Origin: a virus
Taxonomy: Duplodnaviria > Caudoviricetes
Virus record (IMG/VR): IMGVR_UViG_3300031867_000003
Location: 1-64,000 of that record
DNA: 64,000 bases
Strand: one strand, 5' to 3'
In this document: one piece after another, positions 5,548 through 58,468 of the stretch
How the letters are laid out: every line of letters begins with the position of its first letter
How positions within the stretch are numbered: position 1 is the stretch's first letter
The notes under the pieces: generated by a model
What the model was told of the DNA's origin: nothing
The model's database searches: none
The model's input: only the letters and a program-made list of their open reading frames with translations
Translations under genes and position numbers: made by a program

Positions 5548-6498
5548 ATGACTGGAAGACAGGAAGATGAAATAAAACTAAAAAATAAAATACAAAAAAT
5601 GTTAATTGACAAACCTATTATATTAAAAAAATATTATGCGTATATGGGGGAGAATAAAACAGAAAAAACAAAAAATTTGTATATATTAGGTCTTATAAGA
5701 TATAATAATTTTTTAATTATAAATAATCATACCGTAGAAGATTTTGATTATTTGCAAAATCAGAAAAAAACAGATATTAACGAATACATAGAAGAGTTAA
5801 AATATAGAAATGTTAATGGGAAAATAATAAATAACAGCAGAAGTAATATTAGGACTAATTTATATGCGGTAAAATCTTTTTTTGAGTTTTTGGAGGATGA
5901 GGAATACATTACGAAGAATCCATTTTATAACTTTAAGTTCCCAAAATTAAATGAAATTATTGAAGTTCGTCCGATAGAAAAGTCTGATATTAGAGAAATC
6001 AAAGCAAATATCCGAGCTTTTAGTAAAAATCCAGAAAGAGACGAGGCCATATTTGTTATAGGTATTAAAACTGGTTTGCGAGCATCTGCCATAACAGAAA
6101 TAAATATCTCGGATATTAATTGGGAAGATCATACGATAAAGGTAACAGAAAAAGGTAACGTAACTAGATTAGTTTATTTTGGTGAAAATACTGAAACTGC
6201 TTTGATTAAATGGCTTGATGTTAGAAAAGAAACTCCAAATTGCGACGCGTTGTTTATTAATAATAGGGGGCAAAGAATTAATTATAGTATTATCAATAGA
6301 ATGTTAAAAAAATACGGACTGGGTAATGTTCCACATAATTTGAGAAAAACATATGGCACAAATCTTTATGATGAGTCTGGGGATATTTATTTAACCGCAG
6401 AAGGGCTAGGACATAAAAATATTCAAAACACGAAAAGATACGCTCGAGTATCAGAAAAGAAGAAATTACAAGCAGCAAGATTAGTAGATAAAATATAA
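5548..6498 (+). CDS. Tyrosine recombinase/integrase (XerC-like; YopP/SroD position)
   Basis: TGLRASA (R), VTEKGN (K), PHNLRKT (HxxR), LGHKNIQNTKRY (H, Y); catalytic set intact. Confidence 0.9.
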   Translation: MTGRQEDEIKLKNKIQKMLIDKPIILKKYYAYMGENKTEKTKNLYILGLIRYNNFLIINNHTVEDFDYLQNQKKTDINEYIEELKYRNVNGKIINNSRSNIRTNLYAVKSFFEFLEDEEYITKNPFYNFKFPKLNEIIEVRPIEKSDIREIKANIRAFSKNPERDEAIFVIGIKTGLRASAITEINISDINWEDHTIKVTEKGNVTRLVYFGENTETALIKWLDVRKETPNCDALFINNRGQRINYSIINRMLKKYGLGNVPHNLRKTYGTNLYDESGDIYLTAEGLGHKNIQNTKRYARVSEKKKLQAARLVDKI

Positions 6499-21491: not shown

Positions 21492-21570
21492 CTGTTAACC
21501 ATTACCATCACTCACATACGGGCGGAGCAAATCCGCCCAACAAATTAATTATTAAAGGAGAATAGATATT

Positions 21571-35064: not shown

Positions 35065-36324
35065 ATGAGCGATTATAAGCCTGTATATTTAGTGATGGTA
35101 TCATCTAACAATAACAATAAATACTATCGTATGCTGGCGAATACCGATGGCGAAACTTTTACGGTTCAGTATGGCAGAGTAGGGGCGAGTTCTCAAACGA
35201 GGACTTACCCTCTGCGAGACTGGGATAAGAAATACAACGAGAAAATCCGCAAAGGTTACGTAGACCAAACACATCTGATGGAAGATTTAATATCGGTGGT
35301 GGATACGAAGCCGGATACTCCGGAGTATAAAGCAATCGAGAACGCTGCTATAGCAGAGATTGTTGACCGCTTAATGAGTATGGCTAAAAAGAAGGTCCAG
35401 CAGAATTACCGTGTGGAATCAAATCAAGTTACTCAGGCGATGGTTGACGAAGCGCAGAAAATAATTGATAGCCTTACAACTATAACAACGATTAAAGCGT
35501 TTAATGAGGAATTGATGAAACTGTTTACCACAATTCCGCGAAAGATGGGTAATGTTAATGATTATCTGGCTAGGTCAACTGATGATTTTGCCCGTATTAT
35601 TAAAGACGAACAAGATCTGCTTGATGTTATGCGAGGCCAGGTAATCACTCACTCGGCTATGGATGATAAACAGACGGCTTGGGATGATAGCGTTGAAAAT
35701 TCTCCGAAGAATGACAAGACCATTCTTGAGGCTATGGGTATTGTGATGAAACCCGTTAACGATGCCGAAGTTGAAGTCATTAAAGATATGTTGGGCGACT
35801 GCAAGGATAAATTCTATCAAGCGTGGAGAGTAACCAATTTGGCTACTCAAAAACGATTTGATGATTTTGTAGATAAAGAAAATATTAAAGATGTTAGGTT
35901 GTTTTGGCATGGGAGCAGAAATGAGAACTGGTGGTCAATTATTAATAATGGTTTGATGATTAGACCTACAAATGCTGTGATTACAGGAAAATTATACGGA
36001 TACGGTATTTACTTCGCCCCTAAAGCAAGAAAATCATTAGGGTATACAAGTTTAAGTGGCAGCTATTGGGCGAGAGGTGATTCATCATCTGGATTTATGG
36101 CATTAATGGAAGTTGCATATGGAGAACCATATGATGTTTATTCTTTTGACAGCAAATACAATTCATTAACTTATGATGAACTTCAAAAGTTTAAAAGAGG
36201 GGCTAATGCATTACATGCTCATGCCGGAGCCGACATGGGTTATGGCAATCCATTAAGAAATGATGAAGTAATAGTATATAAGGAAGATCAAGTAAGTATT
36301 AAATATTTAGTTGAATTGAGGTGA
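35065..36324 (+). CDS. PARP-family ADP-ribosyltransferase (WGR + regulatory + catalytic domains)
   Basis: NNNKYY..QYGRVG (WGR), FTTIPR, WHGS, GYGIYFA..KSLGY, NDEVIVY (H-Y-E triad). Confidence 0.88.
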   Translation: MSDYKPVYLVMVSSNNNNKYYRMLANTDGETFTVQYGRVGASSQTRTYPLRDWDKKYNEKIRKGYVDQTHLMEDLISVVDTKPDTPEYKAIENAAIAEIVDRLMSMAKKKVQQNYRVESNQVTQAMVDEAQKIIDSLTTITTIKAFNEELMKLFTTIPRKMGNVNDYLARSTDDFARIIKDEQDLLDVMRGQVITHSAMDDKQTAWDDSVENSPKNDKTILEAMGIVMKPVNDAEVEVIKDMLGDCKDKFYQAWRVTNLATQKRFDDFVDKENIKDVRLFWHGSRNENWWSIINNGLMIRPTNAVITGKLYGYGIYFAPKARKSLGYTSLSGSYWARGDSSSGFMALMEVAYGEPYDVYSFDSKYNSLTYDELQKFKRGANALHAHAGADMGYGNPLRNDEVIVYKEDQVSIKYLVELR

Positions 36325-37055
36325 TTTATATTGTAGAACCTAATCAAAAATATGGAAGACTAACCACAATTTGTGTTGTTGGCAAGACAAAAGACAGAGC
36401 AAATATTTGGAAATGTATTTGCGATTGTGGCAATTACGTCAATGTTAGATCTCAGAGTTTGACGAGTGGTAATACAAAGTCATGTGGATGCTTGCAAAGA
36501 GAAAGGGTTGGAAAGAAATCTACTGAAAGTCGATTATTAAATAAGTATGATCTTTCTGGTGAATATGGCATTGGATACGCTACAAATGGAGAGGAATTCT
36601 ATTTTGATTTAGAAGATTATACGTTAATAAAAGATTATACATGGTCTATAAATGACACTGGGTATGTAACATCTAATCCATTCGGAAAACATTTAAGAAT
36701 GCATATGCTTGTAATGAATAAAAAAGACAGGTCTGACGGTAAAGATATTGACCATATAAATCATAATACCAAAGATAATAGAAAAGGAAATCTTAGAATA
36801 ATAGAATATTACCAAAACATTACACATTGTATAACTTATTCTAACAATACATCAGGAAGAAAAGGTGTATCTTGGGATAAATCAAGATCAAAATGGATGG
36901 CGACAATTACATATAATAAGAAAACATATCATTTAGGTAGATATGATAATTTTGAAGATGCAGTTAAAGCAAGAGAAGACGCAGAAAAAAGGATTCATAA
37001 AGAATTTCATTATGATGAATCACAAAACGAAGAAAGGGATAAGGCTATATCATGA
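36321..37055 (+). CDS. HNH/AP2 homing endonuclease
   Basis: YGRLT..CICDCG..SCGC, IDHINHN..DNR..NLR, SGRKGVSW..W.A.I..LG.Y. Confidence 0.85.
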   Translation: MIYIVEPNQKYGRLTTICVVGKTKDRANIWKCICDCGNYVNVRSQSLTSGNTKSCGCLQRERVGKKSTESRLLNKYDLSGEYGIGYATNGEEFYFDLEDYTLIKDYTWSINDTGYVTSNPFGKHLRMHMLVMNKKDRSDGKDIDHINHNTKDNRKGNLRIIEYYQNITHCITYSNNTSGRKGVSWDKSRSKWMATITYNKKTYHLGRYDNFEDAVKAREDAEKRIHKEFHYDESQNEERDKAIS

Positions 37056-37426
37056 AGGTTTACGTAATAGAAAAAGGAGTCTATTCCGATCGCCATATAA
37101 TCGGCGTTGTTGAGTCCGAAGAAGAAGCAAAAAACATTGTCGAGGCTATTAAATGCGGAGATTATAATGACAATTCAATTAGTTATGAGGAGTATGACAC
37201 TCGCCAGTTTTTAGATAAGCGATTAAGATATAATGTCACTAGATATAGCGACGGAGACTGGCAAGTGAAATATGATGATTATGACTTGTATAAGGAATTT
37301 AAAGAGAATATTTGTGTTTATTCAGATTACTACGTCATATATGCCAATTCTCCCGATCAGGCTATCAAAATCGCCCAGGACATGAGAGCGGAAGAGTTAG
37401 CTCGTAGGAATGGACTAACAGAATAA
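37052..37426 (+). CDS. Hypothetical protein
   Basis: MKVYVIEKGVYSDRHIIGV; ATGA coupling. Confidence 0.75.
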   Translation: MKVYVIEKGVYSDRHIIGVVESEEEAKNIVEAIKCGDYNDNSISYEEYDTRQFLDKRLRYNVTRYSDGDWQVKYDDYDLYKEFKENICVYSDYYVIYANSPDQAIKIAQDMRAEELARRNGLTE

Positions 37427-37592: not shown

Positions 37593-37820
37593 TTGAGGAA
37601 GGAGTTCATTATGAATTATCGGACATGTCCAATCTGTGGAAGAGCAATGATCCTGTGCAGTACATACGCACACGGTCAAGTACCTAAAAGGATTTTTAAA
37701 TGTAGCTGCGGTTTCCGGACAGATGTGGATATGTCCGGTTTGTCGTATAGCGACTTTCTTAATCGATATCACTTTGGTGATAGCAACACAAATAACCATA
37801 ACAAACCAATTAATTATTAA
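37593..37820 (+). CDS. Small zinc-ribbon protein
   Basis: CPICG..CSCG; likely start ATG 37611. Confidence 0.6.
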   Translation: MRKEFIMNYRTCPICGRAMILCSTYAHGQVPKRIFKCSCGFRTDVDMSGLSYSDFLNRYHFGDSNTNNHNKPINY

Positions 37821-37830
37821 AGGAGCAATA

Positions 37831-38682
37831 ATGATAACAAACAAAATTAGACTGATTGAGCTATTCGGCGGCGTGGGATGCCAGTCGATAGCATTGAGGG
37901 ATTTGGCTATTGCTAATGGTCTTAATCCGGATGACGTATTTGAACACTATAAATTGGTCGAGTTCGATAAATTTCCGGTCAAAAGCTATAATGCGATTCA
38001 TGGTACGGATTTTGTACCGATGGATATTCAAGAAATTCATGGCGAAGACATAGATGTTGAGGAACCGGACAAATATACGGCAATCTGGACGTACTCGTTC
38101 CCATGTCAAGATCTTTCAGTGGCTGGAAAACAAGCTGGGATGGACAGAGACAGCGGAACTCGTAGTGGATTACTTTGGCAAGTAGAACGTTTATTAAACG
38201 AAGTACATAATCTTCCGAATATCCTTATCATGGAGAACGTCACACAAGTCCATAGCAAAAAGAATCTTCATAACTTTGAAGAATGGTGCCAGTTCCTCGA
38301 ATCCAAAGGATACTACAACTATTGGCAAGACCTTGAAGCCAGTGAGTATGGTGTACCCCAGCACCGCAACCGTTGTTTTATGGTAAGTACCCTCGAAGAA
38401 ATCAACTTCGAATTTCCGCAGCCGATTCCGCTCCATGAGGTTATGAAAGACCGACTCGACCCAGTTGTAGATGAGAAGTTCTATATCAACAATGAAAAAG
38501 CGGATGCTCTCATTCAGCAGCTTATTGCCGACGGTAAACTTGATGAGGAGACAATCCTCGAAGCTGTTGATTTATCAGTTAATAACCCAGACACTCTTGA
38601 TATTGCGAATTGTGTCAGTGCGAGAACAGACCGTGGAATCAGCAACCGCAGATCTGAGGGATCGGGAGTTGTGCAATGTTGA
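37831..38682 (+). CDS. C5-cytosine methyltransferase, N-terminal catalytic part (motifs I-VIII)
   Basis: IELFGGVG, YSFPCQDLS, MENV, PQHRNRCF; motifs IX-X absent; ends in one TRD-like segment. Confidence 0.9.
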   Translation: MITNKIRLIELFGGVGCQSIALRDLAIANGLNPDDVFEHYKLVEFDKFPVKSYNAIHGTDFVPMDIQEIHGEDIDVEEPDKYTAIWTYSFPCQDLSVAGKQAGMDRDSGTRSGLLWQVERLLNEVHNLPNILIMENVTQVHSKKNLHNFEEWCQFLESKGYYNYWQDLEASEYGVPQHRNRCFMVSTLEEINFEFPQPIPLHEVMKDRLDPVVDEKFYINNEKADALIQQLIADGKLDEETILEAVDLSVNNPDTLDIANCVSARTDRGISNRRSEGSGVVQC

Positions 38683-38871
38683 AGAATGAACTAACCTCAA
38701 CAATGCCAATTGTTCTCGGCAGAGTACTTCCTTTGACTTCTGATAAAATACACCAGAATCAGGAAGTATACTATGAGGGGGGTCATCTGTACGATTAAAG
38801 CTACACACTACAAAGACCCTCCAAAAGTATTGGTTAAGGAGATAGTAACAAATGAAGAAAGCAACAATTGA
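38676..38871 (+). pseudogene. TRD-like mini-gene frameshifted at G6 (38777-38782)
   Basis: HQNQEVYYEG then, in the shifted frame, VICTIKATHYKDPPKVLVKE. Confidence 0.7.
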
Positions 38872-39035
38872 CCAACTCGGCTGGCTAGAGCGCGGTAACG
38901 GCAAAACTCAATCTAATGTTGTATACTCTGTGGGGGGTCGCGCCGTGTGTTTGCGCCGGCTGTGGAGTAAAATATTGGATTTACATAATAGATAGGGTAA
39001 AAAGCGATGAAGAAACAAATCACGGCAATTTTTAG
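38852..39035 (+). pseudogene. TRD-like mini-gene frameshifted at G6 (38932-38937)
   Basis: GKTQSNVVYSVG then, in the shifted frame, VAPCVCAGCGVKYWIYII. Confidence 0.7.
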
Positions 39036-39183
39036 AAACATGGGGAGTACTAACGAGGATAGAATACCATCATATAGATTAACCGATGTAGCTGAAGCTA
39101 TATTAGCCAGGGATTATAAAGGATGGGGAAATTATTTTGCTAATGGAGTTATTGAAATTGAAAAACTTGAACCAACCGATTAA
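39007..39183 (+). CDS. TRD-like mini-protein
   Basis: DVAEAILARDYKGWGNYFANGVIE, 58 aa. Confidence 0.7.
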   Translation: MKKQITAIFRNMGSTNEDRIPSYRLTDVAEAILARDYKGWGNYFANGVIEIEKLEPTD

Positions 39184-39346
39184 AGTCGGATTTATCGATT
39201 ACTCCGGTTCGGGCAAAGCCCACCAGTCCAATACTGTATACTCGGCGAATGGCATTTGCCCATGTATTTGTAGCTATGCCAATCGGTATGGCGGAGTACA
39301 ATCCAATATATTAGTACGTGAGAATAATTATGGAAAAAATCAGTAG
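39137..39346 (+). CDS. TRD-like mini-protein
   Basis: GKAHQSNTVYSANGICPCICS..GGVQSNILV. Confidence 0.7.
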   Translation: MLMELLKLKNLNQPIKVGFIDYSGSGKAHQSNTVYSANGICPCICSYANRYGGVQSNILVRENNYGKNQ

Positions 39347-39500
39347 TATTTTTATCGGCAATATTTACGGTCACAAAGATGCCTATGCCGGCGCAGTGTT
39401 TGGAGTGCAAGGGCTGTGTCCGGCAATCAAGGCGAACTCCGGCGGTAATACTCAGCCGATAATAGTGGTGAAAGACAATGGTAACAAATCAGTTAATTAG
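39330..39500 (+). CDS. TRD-like mini-protein
   Basis: IGNIYG..YAGAVFGVQGLCPAIKANSGGNTQPIIVV. Confidence 0.7.
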   Translation: MEKISSIFIGNIYGHKDAYAGAVFGVQGLCPAIKANSGGNTQPIIVVKDNGNKSVN

Positions 39501-39678
39501 ATTAGGTAATATATACGGTTTCACAGGCGGATCGTTTGCCGGCAATGTATATTCTCATCGCGGATTATGTCCTGCGATTAACACTGCCGGCGGTGGCAAC
39601 CGTGAACCGATAGTGATTATTAAGGAGATAAATTATAAAGCTAATCAAACAAATAATATGCGCGTCGAGGGGACGTAA
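39478..39678 (+). CDS. TRD-like mini-protein
   Basis: LGNIYG..FAGNVYSHRGLCPAINTAGGGNREPIVII. Confidence 0.75.
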   Translation: MVTNQLIRLGNIYGFTGGSFAGNVYSHRGLCPAINTAGGGNREPIVIIKEINYKANQTNNMRVEGT

Positions 39679-39820
39679 CCCGAATAATCCGAGTGACCGC
39701 AGTAGAACCGGTGGCGGTATTCTTGTGCAACGTCTGGAGCTTGCTGAGGATGAACTCGCACATACGATTACCTCAGTAGCTAAGGATAATTGGGTGTTCG
39801 AAATATATGGAAAAGAATGA
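39632..39820 (+). CDS. TRD-like mini-protein with non-ATG (ATT/ATA) start
   Basis: AAGGAG RBS; ICASRGRNPNNPSDR..QRLE..AHTITSVAKDNWVFE. Confidence 0.6.
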   Translation: MIKLIKQIICASRGRNPNNPSDRSRTGGGILVQRLELAEDELAHTITSVAKDNWVFEIYGKE

Positions 39821-40016
39821 AAAGCTATTAGATTCTCGCTGTCTTGTGCCAAAACGTACCGAGTATGGTAAGCGTATACGCAAAGATTATGAGGCACATC
39901 GATTATATGAGCATCGTTCCAACATGATGATGTTACATCCTCGCACAGACGGATGCATAAATACATTAACAACAATACTAAAGGATAACTACATCCTGGA
40001 AATATATGAGAGATAG
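39807..40016 (+). CDS. TRD-like mini-protein
   Basis: RTEYGKRIRKDYE..PRTDGCINTLTTILKDNYILE. Confidence 0.75.
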   Translation: MEKNEKLLDSRCLVPKRTEYGKRIRKDYEAHRLYEHRSNMMMLHPRTDGCINTLTTILKDNYILEIYER

Positions 40017-40212
40017 TAATAAAGATAATGATAACAAACTAGTGCCGATTTGTCTCGGCGGAATCGGCGAAATTAATTATGGCAAGCAATATCGCCTCGG
40101 TAACCGTGTTTATGACAGCAGAAGTGTTGCCATGGCACACTGTGCTAATCCTGTCGGTAATCTCGGCGGTTATACATATTTATATTTAGTAGTAGAGGCT
40201 AATAATGAGTAA
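40006..40212 (+). CDS. TRD-like mini-protein
   Basis: LGGI..QYRLGNRVYDSRSVAMAHCANPVGNLGGYTYLYLV. Confidence 0.75.
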   Translation: MRDSNKDNDNKLVPICLGGIGEINYGKQYRLGNRVYDSRSVAMAHCANPVGNLGGYTYLYLVVEANNE

Positions 40213-40630
40213 ACCACTTTTTAAACTTGACAATCATTTATTATATTTTGATTATATATTGGAATACTTTGACTTATTTCATCCGATGTTTTACGTGTGC
40301 AGGGACGATAATGATGAACGTTTTTTGGTTTTGAGGATGGATTTATGTGAGAAGGAATCATACTTGATTACCGAAATCAGCCTAAACGATTTAAATAATA
40401 TGCTATTAGGGAATATCACTATAAGATCGGCATTTCTTGATCGATCATCATTCTACGAGGTTCACTGTTTAACGGAGAACTACTCAGATGACGTAGTAAC
40501 AAAACGTGAAATATCAGAATTCCCTATAGAATACTTACCGGGTAAAGATTATAAATATGTTCTATATGATGACGAGCATAGAGAGTATCAAAAACGAATT
40601 GCAAAAGAATTGGAGAAAACCAATAGTTAA
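40205..40630 (+). CDS. Unrelated hypothetical protein inside the TRD array
   Basis: 141-aa acidic ORF with no TRD motif. Confidence 0.7.
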   Translation: MSKPLFKLDNHLLYFDYILEYFDLFHPMFYVCRDDNDERFLVLRMDLCEKESYLITEISLNDLNNMLLGNITIRSAFLDRSSFYEVHCLTENYSDDVVTKREISEFPIEYLPGKDYKYVLYDDEHREYQKRIAKELEKTNS

Positions 40631-40632
40631 TT

Positions 40633-40854
40633 ATGCAAGAAATTGGACTAATATTTTTAGGAGGTCTCGAGAGTAGCCTGTGGCTAGATAACGGCAAGAG
40701 ACTATCTCGGAATTTCCGCCAAGGATACAGAGTATATGATAGCCGAGGATTAGCTAATACACTACCGAGTAGTAGCATTGGCGGTCTCGGCGGTAACAGT
40801 GGATTATATTTGGTAATTGAGGTAGATAATGAGTTCAGTAATAGCGGAAGATGA
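40633..40854 (+). CDS. TRD-like mini-protein
   Basis: LGGL..NFRQGYRVYDSRGLANTLPSSSIGGLGGNSGLYLV. Confidence 0.75.
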   Translation: MQEIGLIFLGGLESSLWLDNGKRLSRNFRQGYRVYDSRGLANTLPSSSIGGLGGNSGLYLVIEVDNEFSNSGR

Positions 40855-41055
40855 CCCTTTCAATATTATTAAAAATAACCGGTATGGGGGGGGAGATATA
40901 AGATGTTTTACGAAAAACATGGATATATTCCCGGAATTTTTCACCCATATAGTTTACAAGACACTTCGCAGATAGCTTGTACACTGTGTTGTGATTGCGG
41001 AGCGCCGGGACATGCAAGTAATATGATGGTGATAACTAAGGAAAGGATTGATTAA
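40829..41055 (+). pseudogene. TRD-like mini-gene frameshifted at G8 (40886-40893)
   Basis: NNRYGG then, in the shifted frame, RYKMFYEKHGYIPGIFHPY..IACTLCCDCGAPGHASNMMVI, ending 2 nt before the C-terminal MTase gene. Confidence 0.7.
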
Positions 41056-41057
41056 AT

Positions 41058-41348
41058 ATGAGTAGTGATAATATGACAGAAACAAAATACCGTTACAGAA
41101 TTCGCAAGCTTACGCCAAAGTGTTGTTGGCGTCTGATGGATATAGCCGGTCCAAATGATGAATACTTTAATCGGGCTGAACAAGTCAATTCGAATTCACA
41201 ATTGTACAAGCAGGCCGGCAACGGCATCGTCCGCTCAGTGCTGATGGGCATTTTCTCGCAGCTTGACATCGCCGGCATCCGCAAGTGGAATGACATGAGC
41301 GATGAAGAAATTAACCGTATGTTACATTATCAAGAAATTACCTCTTGA
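41058..41348 (+). CDS. C5-cytosine methyltransferase, C-terminal part (motifs IX-X)
   Basis: RIRKLTPKCCWRLM (IX), SQLYKQAGNGIV (X). Confidence 0.9.
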   Translation: MSSDNMTETKYRYRIRKLTPKCCWRLMDIAGPNDEYFNRAEQVNSNSQLYKQAGNGIVRSVLMGIFSQLDIAGIRKWNDMSDEEINRMLHYQEITS

Positions 41349-41397
41349 TTAATTATTAAATGTGTGGTAATGTATAGATAATCAATTAATTATTAAA
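41345..41397 (+). promoter_or_regulatory. Promoter with two TTAATTATTAAA boxes
   Basis: Boxes 41349-41360 and 41386-41397; TTGATT-17bp-TAATGT (TG-extended). Confidence 0.6.
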
Positions 41398-41410
41398 GGA
41401 GGCATCCCAC

Positions 41411-54180: not shown

Positions 54181-54847
54181 TTTTGATAGAATTCGCCAGA
54201 TGACGGAGGAAGAATTTGCCGATTGGCTCGAGGATTTTGCCGAAGCATATGTGGAATTTTGGCTGCTAGGCACATGTAAGAGTGTTAGAGAAGACGACAA
54301 AAGAATTCAGTTGGGTATGTTAAAATCAGAATATATTGGAGATAAGATGTTTGAATTCTGAGAAGGAGAAAATAATGGTTAAAGTATTTACAACAAATAG
54401 CAATGGTAAAATTGAATTTACCAAAGATGAACTTGAGAAGCTACTCAACGAAGTATGGCGAGATGGATATGATTCTAATAAATCGCTTTGGTGGCCATCG
54501 TCGCCGACTACTCCTGTGGGTAGACTTAGCCCAGGCGAAGAATCGATGCAGCTTACGTGCTGAATCGGTGGTGATGCGTAATGAATAACTATAGTGATGA
54601 AGAAATAAAATCAATACTTGTATGTCTTAAAACTCTTGCGCAAATGTCTACGGCACTCGCCAGACCTGTTTGTAGTCAATGCGAACTTTATGATTATAAT
54701 GAGATGTCCGATGAAGGATATTGCGCAGCTAAGGATTACGAACCGATTAAACTATATCGAAAACATCGCCCTGATTGGTGCCCGAGATTAAGGGGGGTAA
54801 TGACTGATGGAAGAAACCACGAAGTTGATACAAAAACTGCGGAATAG
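54173..54847 (+). other. Small hypothetical genes (stops at 54361, 54563, 54847)
   Basis: ORF track. Confidence 0.65.
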
Positions 54848-56426: not shown

Positions 56427-57866
56427 GTGTAGTGGTTAAAGGTATAAAAATGCCACGGTCGTGTTCTGATTGCCAATTGAACCTTGAACAGATGGCATGT
56501 TCTGTCACGGGGACAAGATGGTGGAGCGACACAATGGTTCTAATGGATTTCGATTGTGACAATGAAAGGCTTTACGATTGTCAAATAGATGAACTTCCGG
56601 AGCATCATGGTAGATTAATTGATGCCGACAAAATGAAACAGTGGTTTTTCCGACCATATTCAAATGAGGAAAGTTATTCCAATATTGATATTGCAAGGAT
56701 TATAGATAGTCAAGCTACTATTGTTGAAGCAGAATGAAAGAGGTTATGGAAATGATTAAATTAAATATAGAAATGCCAGAAAGTTGGTTAGATTGTCCAT
56801 TTATGGAAGAAGATGCAGACGATAATACGCCATGGTGTTATTTTGAACCGTATGTTGACGGACGATGTACTGGATTGTTCCAGGGCAAATGCCCGATAAT
56901 TCGGGATGAAAATACAGAATGAAAGGGTTATTCTATGGGGGATAATATATGAGACTGATTGATGCTAACGAATTATTAGAACACGCGTGGAGAGATAAAC
57001 TCGACAGTAGAGAATTAATAGCAAACATGATTGAAAGCGCTCCAACGGTTTATAATCGAGAAAAATGTGGCGAGGCTAATATCATAATGGGGGATAGAAG
57101 TTACAGCGAGGGATGTGTATCTGACTTTGTTTCTATTCTTCTAGCGAATGGATATGAAGTAAATATTAAACGAAATTGTAATAAATTTAATATCGAGTAT
57201 TATAAACAACATGAGTCTATGTTTGAATTTTAATAAAAGGATTTCTTAATGAACTATAAAGAATTTGCAAAAACACTTTTTGATTCTGAAGGCCAAATGT
57301 TTCCAAATGGCACAGACGCGCAGACTTGTTTGAATATTTTGGCGGATCATTTCTTGGGAAAAGATTTGGTACTAAATTATCCTGGTCATATAACTCAATG
57401 GAATTCTGAAGTTACTCATGAAATTTTGAGAAAATATCCATCTGGAAAAATTAGAAGAATACACAAATAATAAATGGGGGGTTATTTAATGGATATAAAA
57501 AGAGTTAATCATATTGAATTACATTTTAATCATAAGGATAATTTGGAAACATTATTATTTATGAATAATGATTGTGAAATTGTTATTAGAAACCTAAAAC
57601 GAGACCATATTATAGTTGGCGGAGAAGCAGTAAACAATTACACTTATGATTTTATGAGCTTGTGGTTTAAGACCGATGACGATGATTATTATAATCATAA
57701 TTATGAATCGTTAAAAAAATTAAAAACCATTAAACTAGATGATCTTTGCTCGATAGTTATTAAATATACCGATGGTACGGAGATGATGGTGCATCCAACT
57801 GAAGATATTACATATATAGCCATGAACAATGAAAATGAATATTTACATGTGATGTATCAGAAATGA
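56423..57866 (+). other. Small hypothetical genes (stops at 56737, 56922, 57233, 57470, 57866)
   Basis: ORF track; RLIDAD/RLIDAN phage modules. Confidence 0.7.
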
Positions 57867-57904: not shown

Positions 57905-58468
57905 ATGGTAATAGATTTAGAAAACTGTAATAACAAGTATGGAATTATTTACACGGATCCGCCATGGCAACAATCAAAAGGCGGTAAAAAATCTGTAAGA
58001 CCAAATTCTAGTGGGGGGGAGTTATCGTACCCAACAATGAGTATAGAGGACATCTCTTCACTGCATGAAAATGTTTTTAATAAATTAACAGAGAAAAAGC
58101 ATGATGTCTTTATGTGGACAATTGACAAATATTTAATAGATACAGAACAGTTTATGAAAAAACTTGGGTACACAAGACATGCTAGGATTATATGGGATAA
58201 GATTACTGGTCAAGCTACAGCATTTACTGTCAGATTTACACACGAATATTTGTTATGGTTTTATAAAAAAGGGAATATCTTAATGCCAGCAGATAGTACT
58301 CGCGGAAAATATTCAGATGTAATAAGAGAACAAGTAAAACGGCATTCGCAAAAACCGCAATGTGCATATGAAATGCTAGAAGATATGTTTCCAGATACTA
58401 AGAAACTAGAATTATTTGCGAGAAACAAACGACCTGGCTGGGACTGCTGGGGCAATGAAGTAGCATAA
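57905..58468 (+). CDS. MT-A70-family N6-adenine methyltransferase
   Basis: IIYTDPPW, YPTM, FMWT, HSQKP, KLELFAR..GWDCWGNE. Confidence 0.92.
   Translation: MVIDLENCNNKYGIIYTDPPWQQSKGGKKSVRPNSSGGELSYPTMSIEDISSLHENVFNKLTEKKHDVFMWTIDKYLIDTEQFMKKLGYTRHARIIWDKITGQATAFTVRFTHEYLLWFYKKGNILMPADSTRGKYSDVIREQVKRHSQKPQCAYEMLEDMFPDTKKLELFARNKRPGWDCWGNEVA

Follow-up and report, generated by a model that had tools for sequence, protein, structure and literature searches.

A putative split multispecific C5-methyltransferase with separately encoded target-recognition peptides in a phage of the class Caudoviricetes

The first 64 kb (positions 1 to 64,000, referred to as the window) of the IMG/VR virus record IMGVR_UViG_3300031867_000003 (Duplodnaviria; Caudoviricetes), which comprises 202,175 bp, is rated complete and probably stems from a bovine gut metagenome, contain a locus at positions 37,831 to 41,348 that we interpret as a split multispecific C5-methyltransferase (C5-MTase). 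Two separate genes, N and C, appear to encode its catalytic parts, and an array of mini-genes lies between them, whose presumably translationally coupled products would be peptides resembling target recognition domains (TRDs) that would complete the small domain of the enzyme in trans. Based on sequence comparisons and a structural model, a probability of roughly 0.55 was assigned to this interpretation. According to the proposed mechanism, the N gene would supply the S-adenosylmethionine-binding and catalytic large domain (motifs I-VIII) together with one tethered TRD, the C gene would supply motifs IX-X, and each of about 12 mini-genes (45-75 aa) would supply one HhaI-like TRD consisting of a strand, the pattern Q..VY...G..P(T/I)(L/I)...GG and a hydrophobic strand. 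The mini-genes overlap or abut at short stop/start junctions, so translation probably passes from one to the next along a single unit by termination-reinitiation coupling. The family and the many two-part relatives suggest that N and C would pair in the manner of M.AquI. A single TRD peptide at a time would then complete the small domain, and in the modelled arrangement its first and last strands join the end of N close to motif VIII and the strand that runs into motif IX. The result would be a set of ternary enzymes with different targets, shielding the phage DNA from many host restriction systems. Gain, loss and exchange of cassettes change the module set, and poly-G tracts would switch some of the modules.

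The catalytic parts and the recognition modules are listed below. L-labels (L002, L023 and others) denote related loci or contigs, and X2 and X4 are sequencing runs from other samples, seen as contigs. Selection is expressed as the ratio of non-synonymous to synonymous changes (pN/pS).

37831..38682, plus strand: N subunit, motifs I-VIII of the C5-MTase and a C-terminal TRD of the ARTDRGISN type (283 aa)
38676..38871, plus strand: TRD module 2, pieces 38676-38798 and 38773-38871, frameshift at the G6 run 38777-38782
38852..39035, plus strand: TRD module 3, two pieces, frameshift at the G6 run 38932-38937
39007..39183, plus strand: TRD module 4, ARDYKG type, own ATG; pN/pS of 0.16 against L023 in its own frame
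39143..39346, plus strand: TRD module 5, Q.N.VY...G..P type, start at ATG 39143 or TTG 39137; not in L023 and L002
39330..39500, plus strand: TRD module 6, ATG 39330 (GTG 39318); pN/pS of 0.03-0.08 in its own frame, zero synonymous changes in the others
39478..39678, plus strand: TRD module 7, IRLGNIYGFTGGSFAGNVY type, own ATG and a GGTG site resembling a ribosome-binding site (RBS); pN/pS of 0.06-0.08
39632..39820, plus strand: TRD module 8, RGRNP...TITSVAKDN type, open frame with ATA here and ATG in L002 and L023; pN/pS of 0.08-0.09
39807..40016, plus strand: TRD module 9, TEYGKRIRK...NTLTTILKDN type, own ATG
40006..40212, plus strand: TRD module 10, GNRVYDSR...GG..YLYLVV type, own ATG; pN/pS of 0.12
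40633..40854, plus strand: TRD module 11, QGYRVYDSRGLANTLP...GG type, the pattern closest to M.HhaI, own ATG; pN/pS of 0.04
40829..41055, plus strand: TRD module 12, two pieces, frameshift at the G8 run 40886-40893
41058..41348, plus strand: C subunit, motifs IX-X without a fused TRD (96 aa)

The first-pass annotation had placed motifs I-VIII and motifs IX-X in separate genes, and matches to PF00145 and PHROG at 37831-38682 and 41058-41348 bore this out. The N part aligned with positions 2-209 of PF00145 (E 8e-40) and shows, in order and all at invariant alignment columns, ELFGGVG (motif I), SFPCQ (IV), ENV (VI) and QHRNR (VIII), the motifs by which membership of this family was judged. Its nearest solved structures are M.MpeI and M.HhaI, and the gene start is preceded by a strong AAAGGAG site. 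The ARTDRGISN-type TRD makes up the last ~25 residues, and the N subunits of many relatives end likewise. The C part aligned with positions 263-322 of PF00145 (E 8e-4), where the score of 19.3 for this short piece is below the Pfam cut-off of 22, and it matched PHROG methyltransferase families at 1e-15. Its motif IX region reads RKLTPKCCWRLM and motif X (QAGNGIV) is intact. At 41121-41123, within motif IX, relatives have LTPK-E-CW and the present genome has LTPK-C-CW, a GAA to TGT change at all three bases that is also present in a second assembly; in the alignments, Glu occupies this position in at least 90% of the relatives and Cys occurs in the present genome only. A search of the GenBank phage collection gave one distant match only, to the N part. 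The location of N and C on separate genes corresponds to enzymes of the M.AquI type, and the packing of N against C is seen in the three-chain model described below only.

Between N and C, all coding is on the plus strand in small open reading frames (ORFs), and the frame changes at nearly every module boundary. Reading all three frames revealed 12 TRD-like modules distributed over 15 ORF pieces of 32-73 aa. The first-pass annotation had described 11 overlapping mini-ORFs of ~55-75 aa in changing frames, of which the changing frames were confirmed and the count was not; it had also included the ORF at 40205-40630 among the modules, which is DUF6575-like and not a TRD. The variable-region signatures and the terminal hydrophobic strand that it had noticed were found again in the three-frame reading. 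The modules follow the pattern of the M.HhaI variable region, with a first strand such as (I/L)RLGNIYG, a recognition pattern (Q/G..(R)VY...G..P(T/I)(L/I)...GG, or the variants ARDYKG and RGRNP...TLT..KDN) and a hydrophobic last strand ending in Glu. They differ from each other in sequence type, which would be compatible with distinct targets. Neither Pfam nor PHROG yielded a match for any module, and a PDB sequence search with modules 11 and 8 returned nothing even at E 10.

The frame changes occur at 13 junctions with a stop at each, and 13 of the 14 downstream units have an ATG 1-12 codons past the last in-frame stop and ahead of the first conserved residue. By a rough estimate, the chance of such an ATG is ~15-20% per unit. 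The distance from a stop to the next ATG ranges from 2 nt apart to a 41-nt overlap. An own start for most modules, as claimed initially, was thus found for these units, module 8 having ATA instead. As in multispecific phage C5-MTases, the TRDs stand in tandem between motifs VIII and IX; unlike in those enzymes, TRDs and core do not form one polypeptide, as 13 frame-changing junctions, which are kept in relatives, divide them. The step to the frame of the next mini-gene is +1 at 10 of 13 junctions in the window (38852-40829), at 8 of 9 in L082 (3557-4749) and at nearly all in L003 (6722-7791), the next ATG being read from NAT-G. This +1 bias is explained neither by the common ATGA/TAATG overlaps nor by a bias to 1-nt deletions. 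With 29 matches in the window against 16.5 expected, the junction word GAAATATATG is not peculiar to the array.

A prediction of N, a module and C as a multimer had been proposed as a check and was run with module 7 as three chains, with an alignment per chain and in three runs. The module docked at the TRD position with an ipSAE (a score of interface confidence) of 0.88, compared with 0.00 for the best control. At least 84% of contacts were common to the runs, and the predicted local distance difference test score (pLDDT) of the partner was at least 64. In the calibration, 58 of 80 solved complexes attained this mark, as did 2 of 110 mismatched pairs. Module residues 2-14, 24-36 and 43-53, the touching parts being the first strand, the recognition loop and the last strand, contact N 171-180 (QxRxR of motif VIII), N 201-258 (including the N tail), C 9-18 (the entry to motif IX) and C 50-54 (motif X). 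In the model, free module 7 sits where the monomeric enzyme has its TRD. The pass may partly reflect a memory of monomeric C5-MTase structures, with the modules alone having no PDB sequence match, and the model is therefore read as structural compatibility, not binding.

A fragmented array of this kind could also be produced by assembly or sequencing errors, as homopolymer or chimeric errors yield false frameshifts, and three of the shifts are indeed found at G runs, a known error hotspot. We regard this explanation as hardly credible. An independent Logan assembly of the likely source run, which contains the whole stretch, was made with a different assembler and showed zero differences over 37700-41400 at a depth of 21, and the shifts at the junctions are not located at homopolymers. 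Relatives of ~90% identity are present in three other ruminant samples (Logan contigs), and the split layout recurs in IMG/VR contigs of other metagenomes, in Logan contigs and in metagenome-assembled genomes (MAGs), coming from many independent studies and samples. For these three reasons, namely the identical second assembly, the close relatives elsewhere and the same layout in other contigs and MAGs, the array layout is not an artefact. A single continuous ORF in raw reads or relatives had been named as the outcome that would overturn the initial proposal; the second assembly is identical and the close relatives L002 and L008+L023 are equally split. Almost all genes of the window are on the plus strand, and intact long genes (1161, 683 and 453 aa) occur elsewhere in it, so general assembly quality is not behind the fragmentation.

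The G runs themselves are unusual. Runs of G6 or longer occur 8 times in the 202-kb genome and runs of C6 or longer do not occur; three of the eight fall in the 2.4-kb array, each exactly at an intra-module frameshift (G6 at 38777-82, G6 at 38932-37 and G8 at 40886-93). In runs X2 and X4, the tract of module 3 has one extra G (at 38931), by which the module would be one frame, and in run X4 the tract of module 2 is extended by GGG (at 38776). Module 2 of L023 has no G run or shift at that site and is shifted at a CCC run further on. As contigs of different samples were compared, the differences in tract length are differences between populations. The length of the poly-G tracts differs between populations in a way that would turn single modules off or on, a change of frame seen for module 3 with a presumed effect on its function. 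Further G runs in the window are a G7 at 58013-58019 inside the ORF 57905-58468, a G6 at 57476-57481 at the start of the ORF 57474-57866, and a G6 at 54792-54797 in an RBS-like site before 54807.

Selection on the mini-genes was examined by comparison with L002 and L008+L023. In its own frame, each shared module had a pN/pS of 0.03-0.16, and the other two frames gave values >1 or no synonymous change. N (0.04-0.12) and C (0.09-0.17) gave values equal to those of the modules, and purifying selection on the modules was also found between L002 and L023. The DNA identity of the modules (93-96%) exceeds that of the N part (83%); the N part of L002 is 87% identical in protein to that of the window. 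Where modules 7 and 8 overlap, the changes are synonymous in the frame of module 8 and non-synonymous in the tail of module 7, consistent with a start of its own for module 8. In the window and in L002, wholly different linkers connect the same two modules, yet the stop and the overlapping ATG are kept. The frame pattern of successive modules is common to the three phages (window, L002 and L008+L023), and the split is therefore older than their divergence, with frame-wise selection having gone on afterwards.

These data bear on the possibility that the locus is a decaying multispecific methyltransferase pseudogene, in which a formerly continuous gene has been broken by frameshifts and the small ORFs are mere by-products. 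Such decay would account for the three intra-module frameshifts, the lost ATG and the Glu-to-Cys change of motif IX in this genome, for the damaged relatives L026, L027, L124 and L004, and for the single ORFs of 400-950 aa in distant relatives. It would not be expected to leave every shared module with a pN/pS of 0.03-0.16 in its own frame, matching the catalytic parts, nor module DNA that is more conserved than the N part. Moreover, the frame changes stand at module boundaries and come with start codons in several lineages, and dozens of clusters of stand-alone TRDs (<50% identity) have the same boundaries. We therefore consider a pseudogene improbable. Judged from the sequence comparisons, we reject simple decay of the whole array, in agreement with the first-pass annotation, and damage is seen in individual modules and in some relatives.

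Similarly improbable in our view is recoding, by which long multi-TRD polypeptides would arise through +1/-1 frameshifting of the ribosome, slippage during transcription of the G runs or read-through of stops, so that the genes would only look fragmented. The prevalence of the +1 step (10 of 13 in the window, 8 of 9 in L082) speaks for it, as do the poly-G tracts exactly at the three intra-module shifts in a genome with only 8 runs of G6 or more, the absence of an ATG in module 8 here, and the N part of L002, which is broken by an in-frame TAG with both halves still under selection. However, there is no conserved slippery sequence, and linkers that are wholly different between window and L002 keep stop and ATG. 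Conserved residues of module 8 are located upstream of the module 7 stop and would be lost by a shift at that stop, and the C part would be reached only after ~12 consecutive shifts. The 4 tRNAs of the genome are ordinary, with no suppressor or odd anticodon loop, and a search of the genome for a suppressor or quadruplet-reading tRNA found none. Stop-codon reassignment was also dropped, because the junctions shift the frame and table 11 leaves other genes intact, as was a shufflon or inversion system, the modules being all on one strand without flanking inverted repeats.

The break in the N part was inspected in the two relatives that share it. At 6270-6300, L002 has a 6-nt insertion after PCQ (CAA TAG CAT GAC) with an in-frame TAG and no start, and L008 has an 8-nt insertion at the same place (CAA TAGTG CAT GAC) with a TAGTG stop/GTG overlap; an X4 contig has 6 extra letters in the same stretch. 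Between L002 and L008/L023, both N halves had a pN/pS of 0.05-0.13, and N halves, modules and C part overall ranged from 0 to 0.17. The break may be a functional split inside the catalytic domain, or the stop may be read through.

A comparison of module content among relatives, which had been suggested as a further check, revealed gain and loss of whole units (L002, L008+L023, X2 and X4). The window holds modules 2-12 and a 141-aa gene; L008+L023 hold 2, 4, 6, 7, 8, 10, the 141-aa gene and 11 (8 modules); L002 holds a different ARDYKG-type module followed by 6, 7 and 8 (4 modules). Module boundaries are the same in relatives with 4, 8 or 12 modules, and L003, L080, L082, L083, L146 and L161 likewise show the array layout. 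Every module of the relatives is likewise read in a frame of its own, with an ATG 1-9 codons past the last in-frame stop. Module 9 is cleanly absent in an X2 contig (39817->40033) and in L023, the 141-aa gene is cleanly absent in a contig (40196->40647), and module 12 is cleanly absent (40815->41124), missing in L023, X2 and X4. The comparison showed that module content varies by whole units, which are gained, lost and exchanged as cassettes among related phages. The methyltransferase locus of one 189.8-kb relative (IMGVR_UViG_3300021387_001709) is divided between a contig end (L008) and a contig start (L023), so that genome is circular or circularly permuted.

The mobility of the modules also suits a different role for them. 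They could be translated and selected without being specificity subunits in trans, if the TRD tethered to N (or fused to C in relatives) alone directs methylation and the free modules act as a cassette reservoir for recombination into the fused position, as competitive regulators or as DNA-binding peptides. Relatives often have one to several TRDs fused to C (14 proteins of 138-207 aa; L003, L082 and L146), the modules move as cassettes, and a cassette reservoir would likewise show purifying selection. However, silent cassettes need no ATG 1-9 codons after the frame opens, and almost all modules and lineages have one there. No TRD is fused to C in the window, L002 and L023, which nevertheless keep 4-12 free modules, and a free module occupies the canonical TRD site in the model, as predicted with high confidence. 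Taken together, we consider this other role rather unlikely.

Several observations weigh against the interpretation as a split multispecific enzyme with recognition peptides acting in trans. In this genome, modules 2, 3 and 12 are frameshifted (off) and module 8 has ATA for ATG, and part of the array may therefore be silent. Shine-Dalgarno-like sites 5' of the modules are often weak. A peptide of ~60 aa has to compete with the TRD tethered to N, and the complex model covers module 7 alone. Cys in place of the nearly invariant Glu of motif IX could weaken this C copy. Among the relatives, L026 and L027 have shifts inside modules, L124 has a TAA in ENV, L004 has a stop in a TRD, and several L003 modules lack an ATG; the family therefore does decay at times. 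The intra-module frameshifts (modules 2, 3 and 12), the lack of an ATG in module 8, the N-tethered TRD and the Glu-to-Cys change had been overlooked in the first-pass annotation, and the split layout that it reported is real.

Stand-alone TRDs of this type are widespread. In a collection clustered at 90%, module 7 had 43 small homologues (38-109 aa), nearly all of which start 3-10 residues before the first conserved strand, and 14 longer ones (138-207 aa), all of which combine a TRD with motifs IX-X; a word-index search found no full-length enzyme among its homologues. When 1.84 billion cluster representatives were searched exhaustively with a profile, 1521 matched at E <=1e-3, including 330 at <=1e-10. 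The best 150 matches comprise 38 of <=80 aa, 33 of 81-120 aa, 53 of 121-350 aa and 26 longer ones, and stand-alone TRDs of 45-120 aa account for 71 of these 150 best clusters (<=50% mutual identity). A search of genome contigs with the module-7 profile gave no confirmed relative. Relatives of the N part were found 80 times in bacterial genomes, mostly MAGs of gut Bacillota, with ~35 in the two-part N/C form, ~20 as single ORFs and ~9 as mini-ORF arrays; distant relatives are single ORFs of 400-950 aa. As the two-part form is the commonest among the 80, non-covalent assembly would be normal in the clade. By these counts, the two-part form is the norm in the clade and full fragmentation a recurring derivative. 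A similarly fragmented array, in which shifts occur inside modules, is found in a phage lineage of higher GC content (L026:5400-6200 and L027:5150-6190); one of the shifts is common to both contigs, at a GGGG run in the IRQATKSG...DLSYP module.

A wider proposal is put forward tentatively. In many gut and rumen phages, free TRD peptides of ~50-70 aa might serve as interchangeable specificity subunits, a C5 counterpart of HsdS, so that one N-C core would be programmed combinatorially, with poly-G switching, with start-to-stop cassettes being traded, and with a catalytic domain that works split after PCQ in one lineage.

Within and around the unit, three further features were recorded:

37807..37825, plus strand: 19-nt intergenic motif CAATTAATTATTAAAGGAG, RBS included, directly 5' of the N gene
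40205..40630, plus strand: 141-aa non-TRD gene within the array, DUF6575-like; pN/pS of 0.08
41383..41401, plus strand: second exact copy of the 19-nt motif CAATTAATTATTAAAGGAG, 3' of the C gene at the end of the unit

The motif CAATTAATTATTAAAGGAG brackets the unit without an internal copy, which was counted in favour of a single expression unit. About 10 looser copies stand ahead of other genes in the genome and none within the array; further sites before gene starts are at 21542 and 34037 and at genome positions 76385 and 194933. The motif may act as a promoter/RBS element of the phage or mark the boundary of a cassette. The 141-aa ORF had no Pfam or PHROG match, and its protein resembled DUF6575 clusters with an ESM Atlas feature score of 0.92 and a template modelling (TM) score of 0.90 in structure. 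Its AlphaFold2 single-sequence model (pLDDT 40) was too poor for a fold search. L023 has the gene at the same place; an X2 contig and other arrays lack it. Upstream of the methyltransferase unit, at a distance of ~0.4-1.5 kb, are an HNH-AP2 homing-endonuclease-like gene (36321-37055) and a DUF7336 gene (37052-37426). A 75-aa zinc-ribbon ORF (37593-37820), which is conserved in L002, lies immediately upstream of the unit.

The specificity of C5-MTases is thought to sit in the catalytic chain, or at most in one of two halves. If our interpretation is correct, peptides of ~60 aa that plug into a common core would represent a new DNA methyltransferase architecture. It would show how phages quickly widen or change their anti-restriction methylome through cassette gain and loss and homopolymer switching, and, being minimal and modular, it would provide a scaffold on which cytosine methylation could be programmed. 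Metagenomes contain hundreds of clusters of this large family, whose mini-genes are at present annotated automatically as hypothetical proteins, if the locus is not taken for a pseudogene. The family appears to be undescribed. In the full-text literature searched, no report of separately encoded TRD subunits for a C5-MTase was found, nor of a free TRD, natural or engineered, that joins two other fragments.

The Bacillus phage enzymes M.SPRI, M.Phi3TI, M.H2I and M.Rho11sI are carried by temperate phages and combine one core with 3-4 short tandem TRDs between motifs VIII and IX, one target per TRD; their presumed role is protection against many restriction systems. The present system is likewise phage-borne, with tandem TRDs between motifs VIII and IX and a presumed anti-restriction role. 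It differs in that each TRD has its own ORF and frame, the core is divided between two genes (N and C), and a larger array of 12 modules is present. The arrangement of several TRDs in one polypeptide is described for the Bacillus phage multispecific enzymes in the review PMC12707154 (citing Trautner et al. 1996). For M.AquI, PMC3404938 (citing Karreman and de Waard 1990 and Pinarbasi et al. 2002) describes motifs I-VIII on one polypeptide and IX-X on the other, which are jointly active. The N/C split is shared with M.AquI and is also the form of many of the two-part relatives found, whereas M.AquI consists of two pieces with one variable region divided between them, and here the recognition modules are extra pieces and C is without a TRD. 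The same paper cites M.AquI and M.EcoHK31I as two-polypeptide exceptions among C5-MTases, the latter needing a small second polypeptide for a missing motif (PMC3404938). In M.EcoHK31I, the small chain provides motif IX and the TRD is on the large chain, whereas here the small chains are the TRDs. Engineered fragments of M.SssI, M.HhaI and M.BspRI, split in the variable region, reassemble non-covalently, according to that paper (PMC3404938). Those are artificial two-fragment systems, whereas here the parts are natural and free TRDs would, as modelled, join two other parts.

Translation coupling of adjacent genes has been described in the setting of Type I restriction-modification and HsdS (PMC3510504). 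In logic, the proposed system would resemble HsdS and phasevarions, with a separate specificity subunit, coupled translation and repeat tracts that switch specificity. HsdS belongs to N6-adenine methyltransferases and is a protein of ~400 aa with two TRDs, whereas here the modification would be C5-cytosine, the subunits are peptides of ~60 aa, and there is no homology. Overall, the system would work like a multispecific C5-MTase, departs from the single polypeptide that defines that family, and seems to go beyond the two-subunit form of M.AquI.

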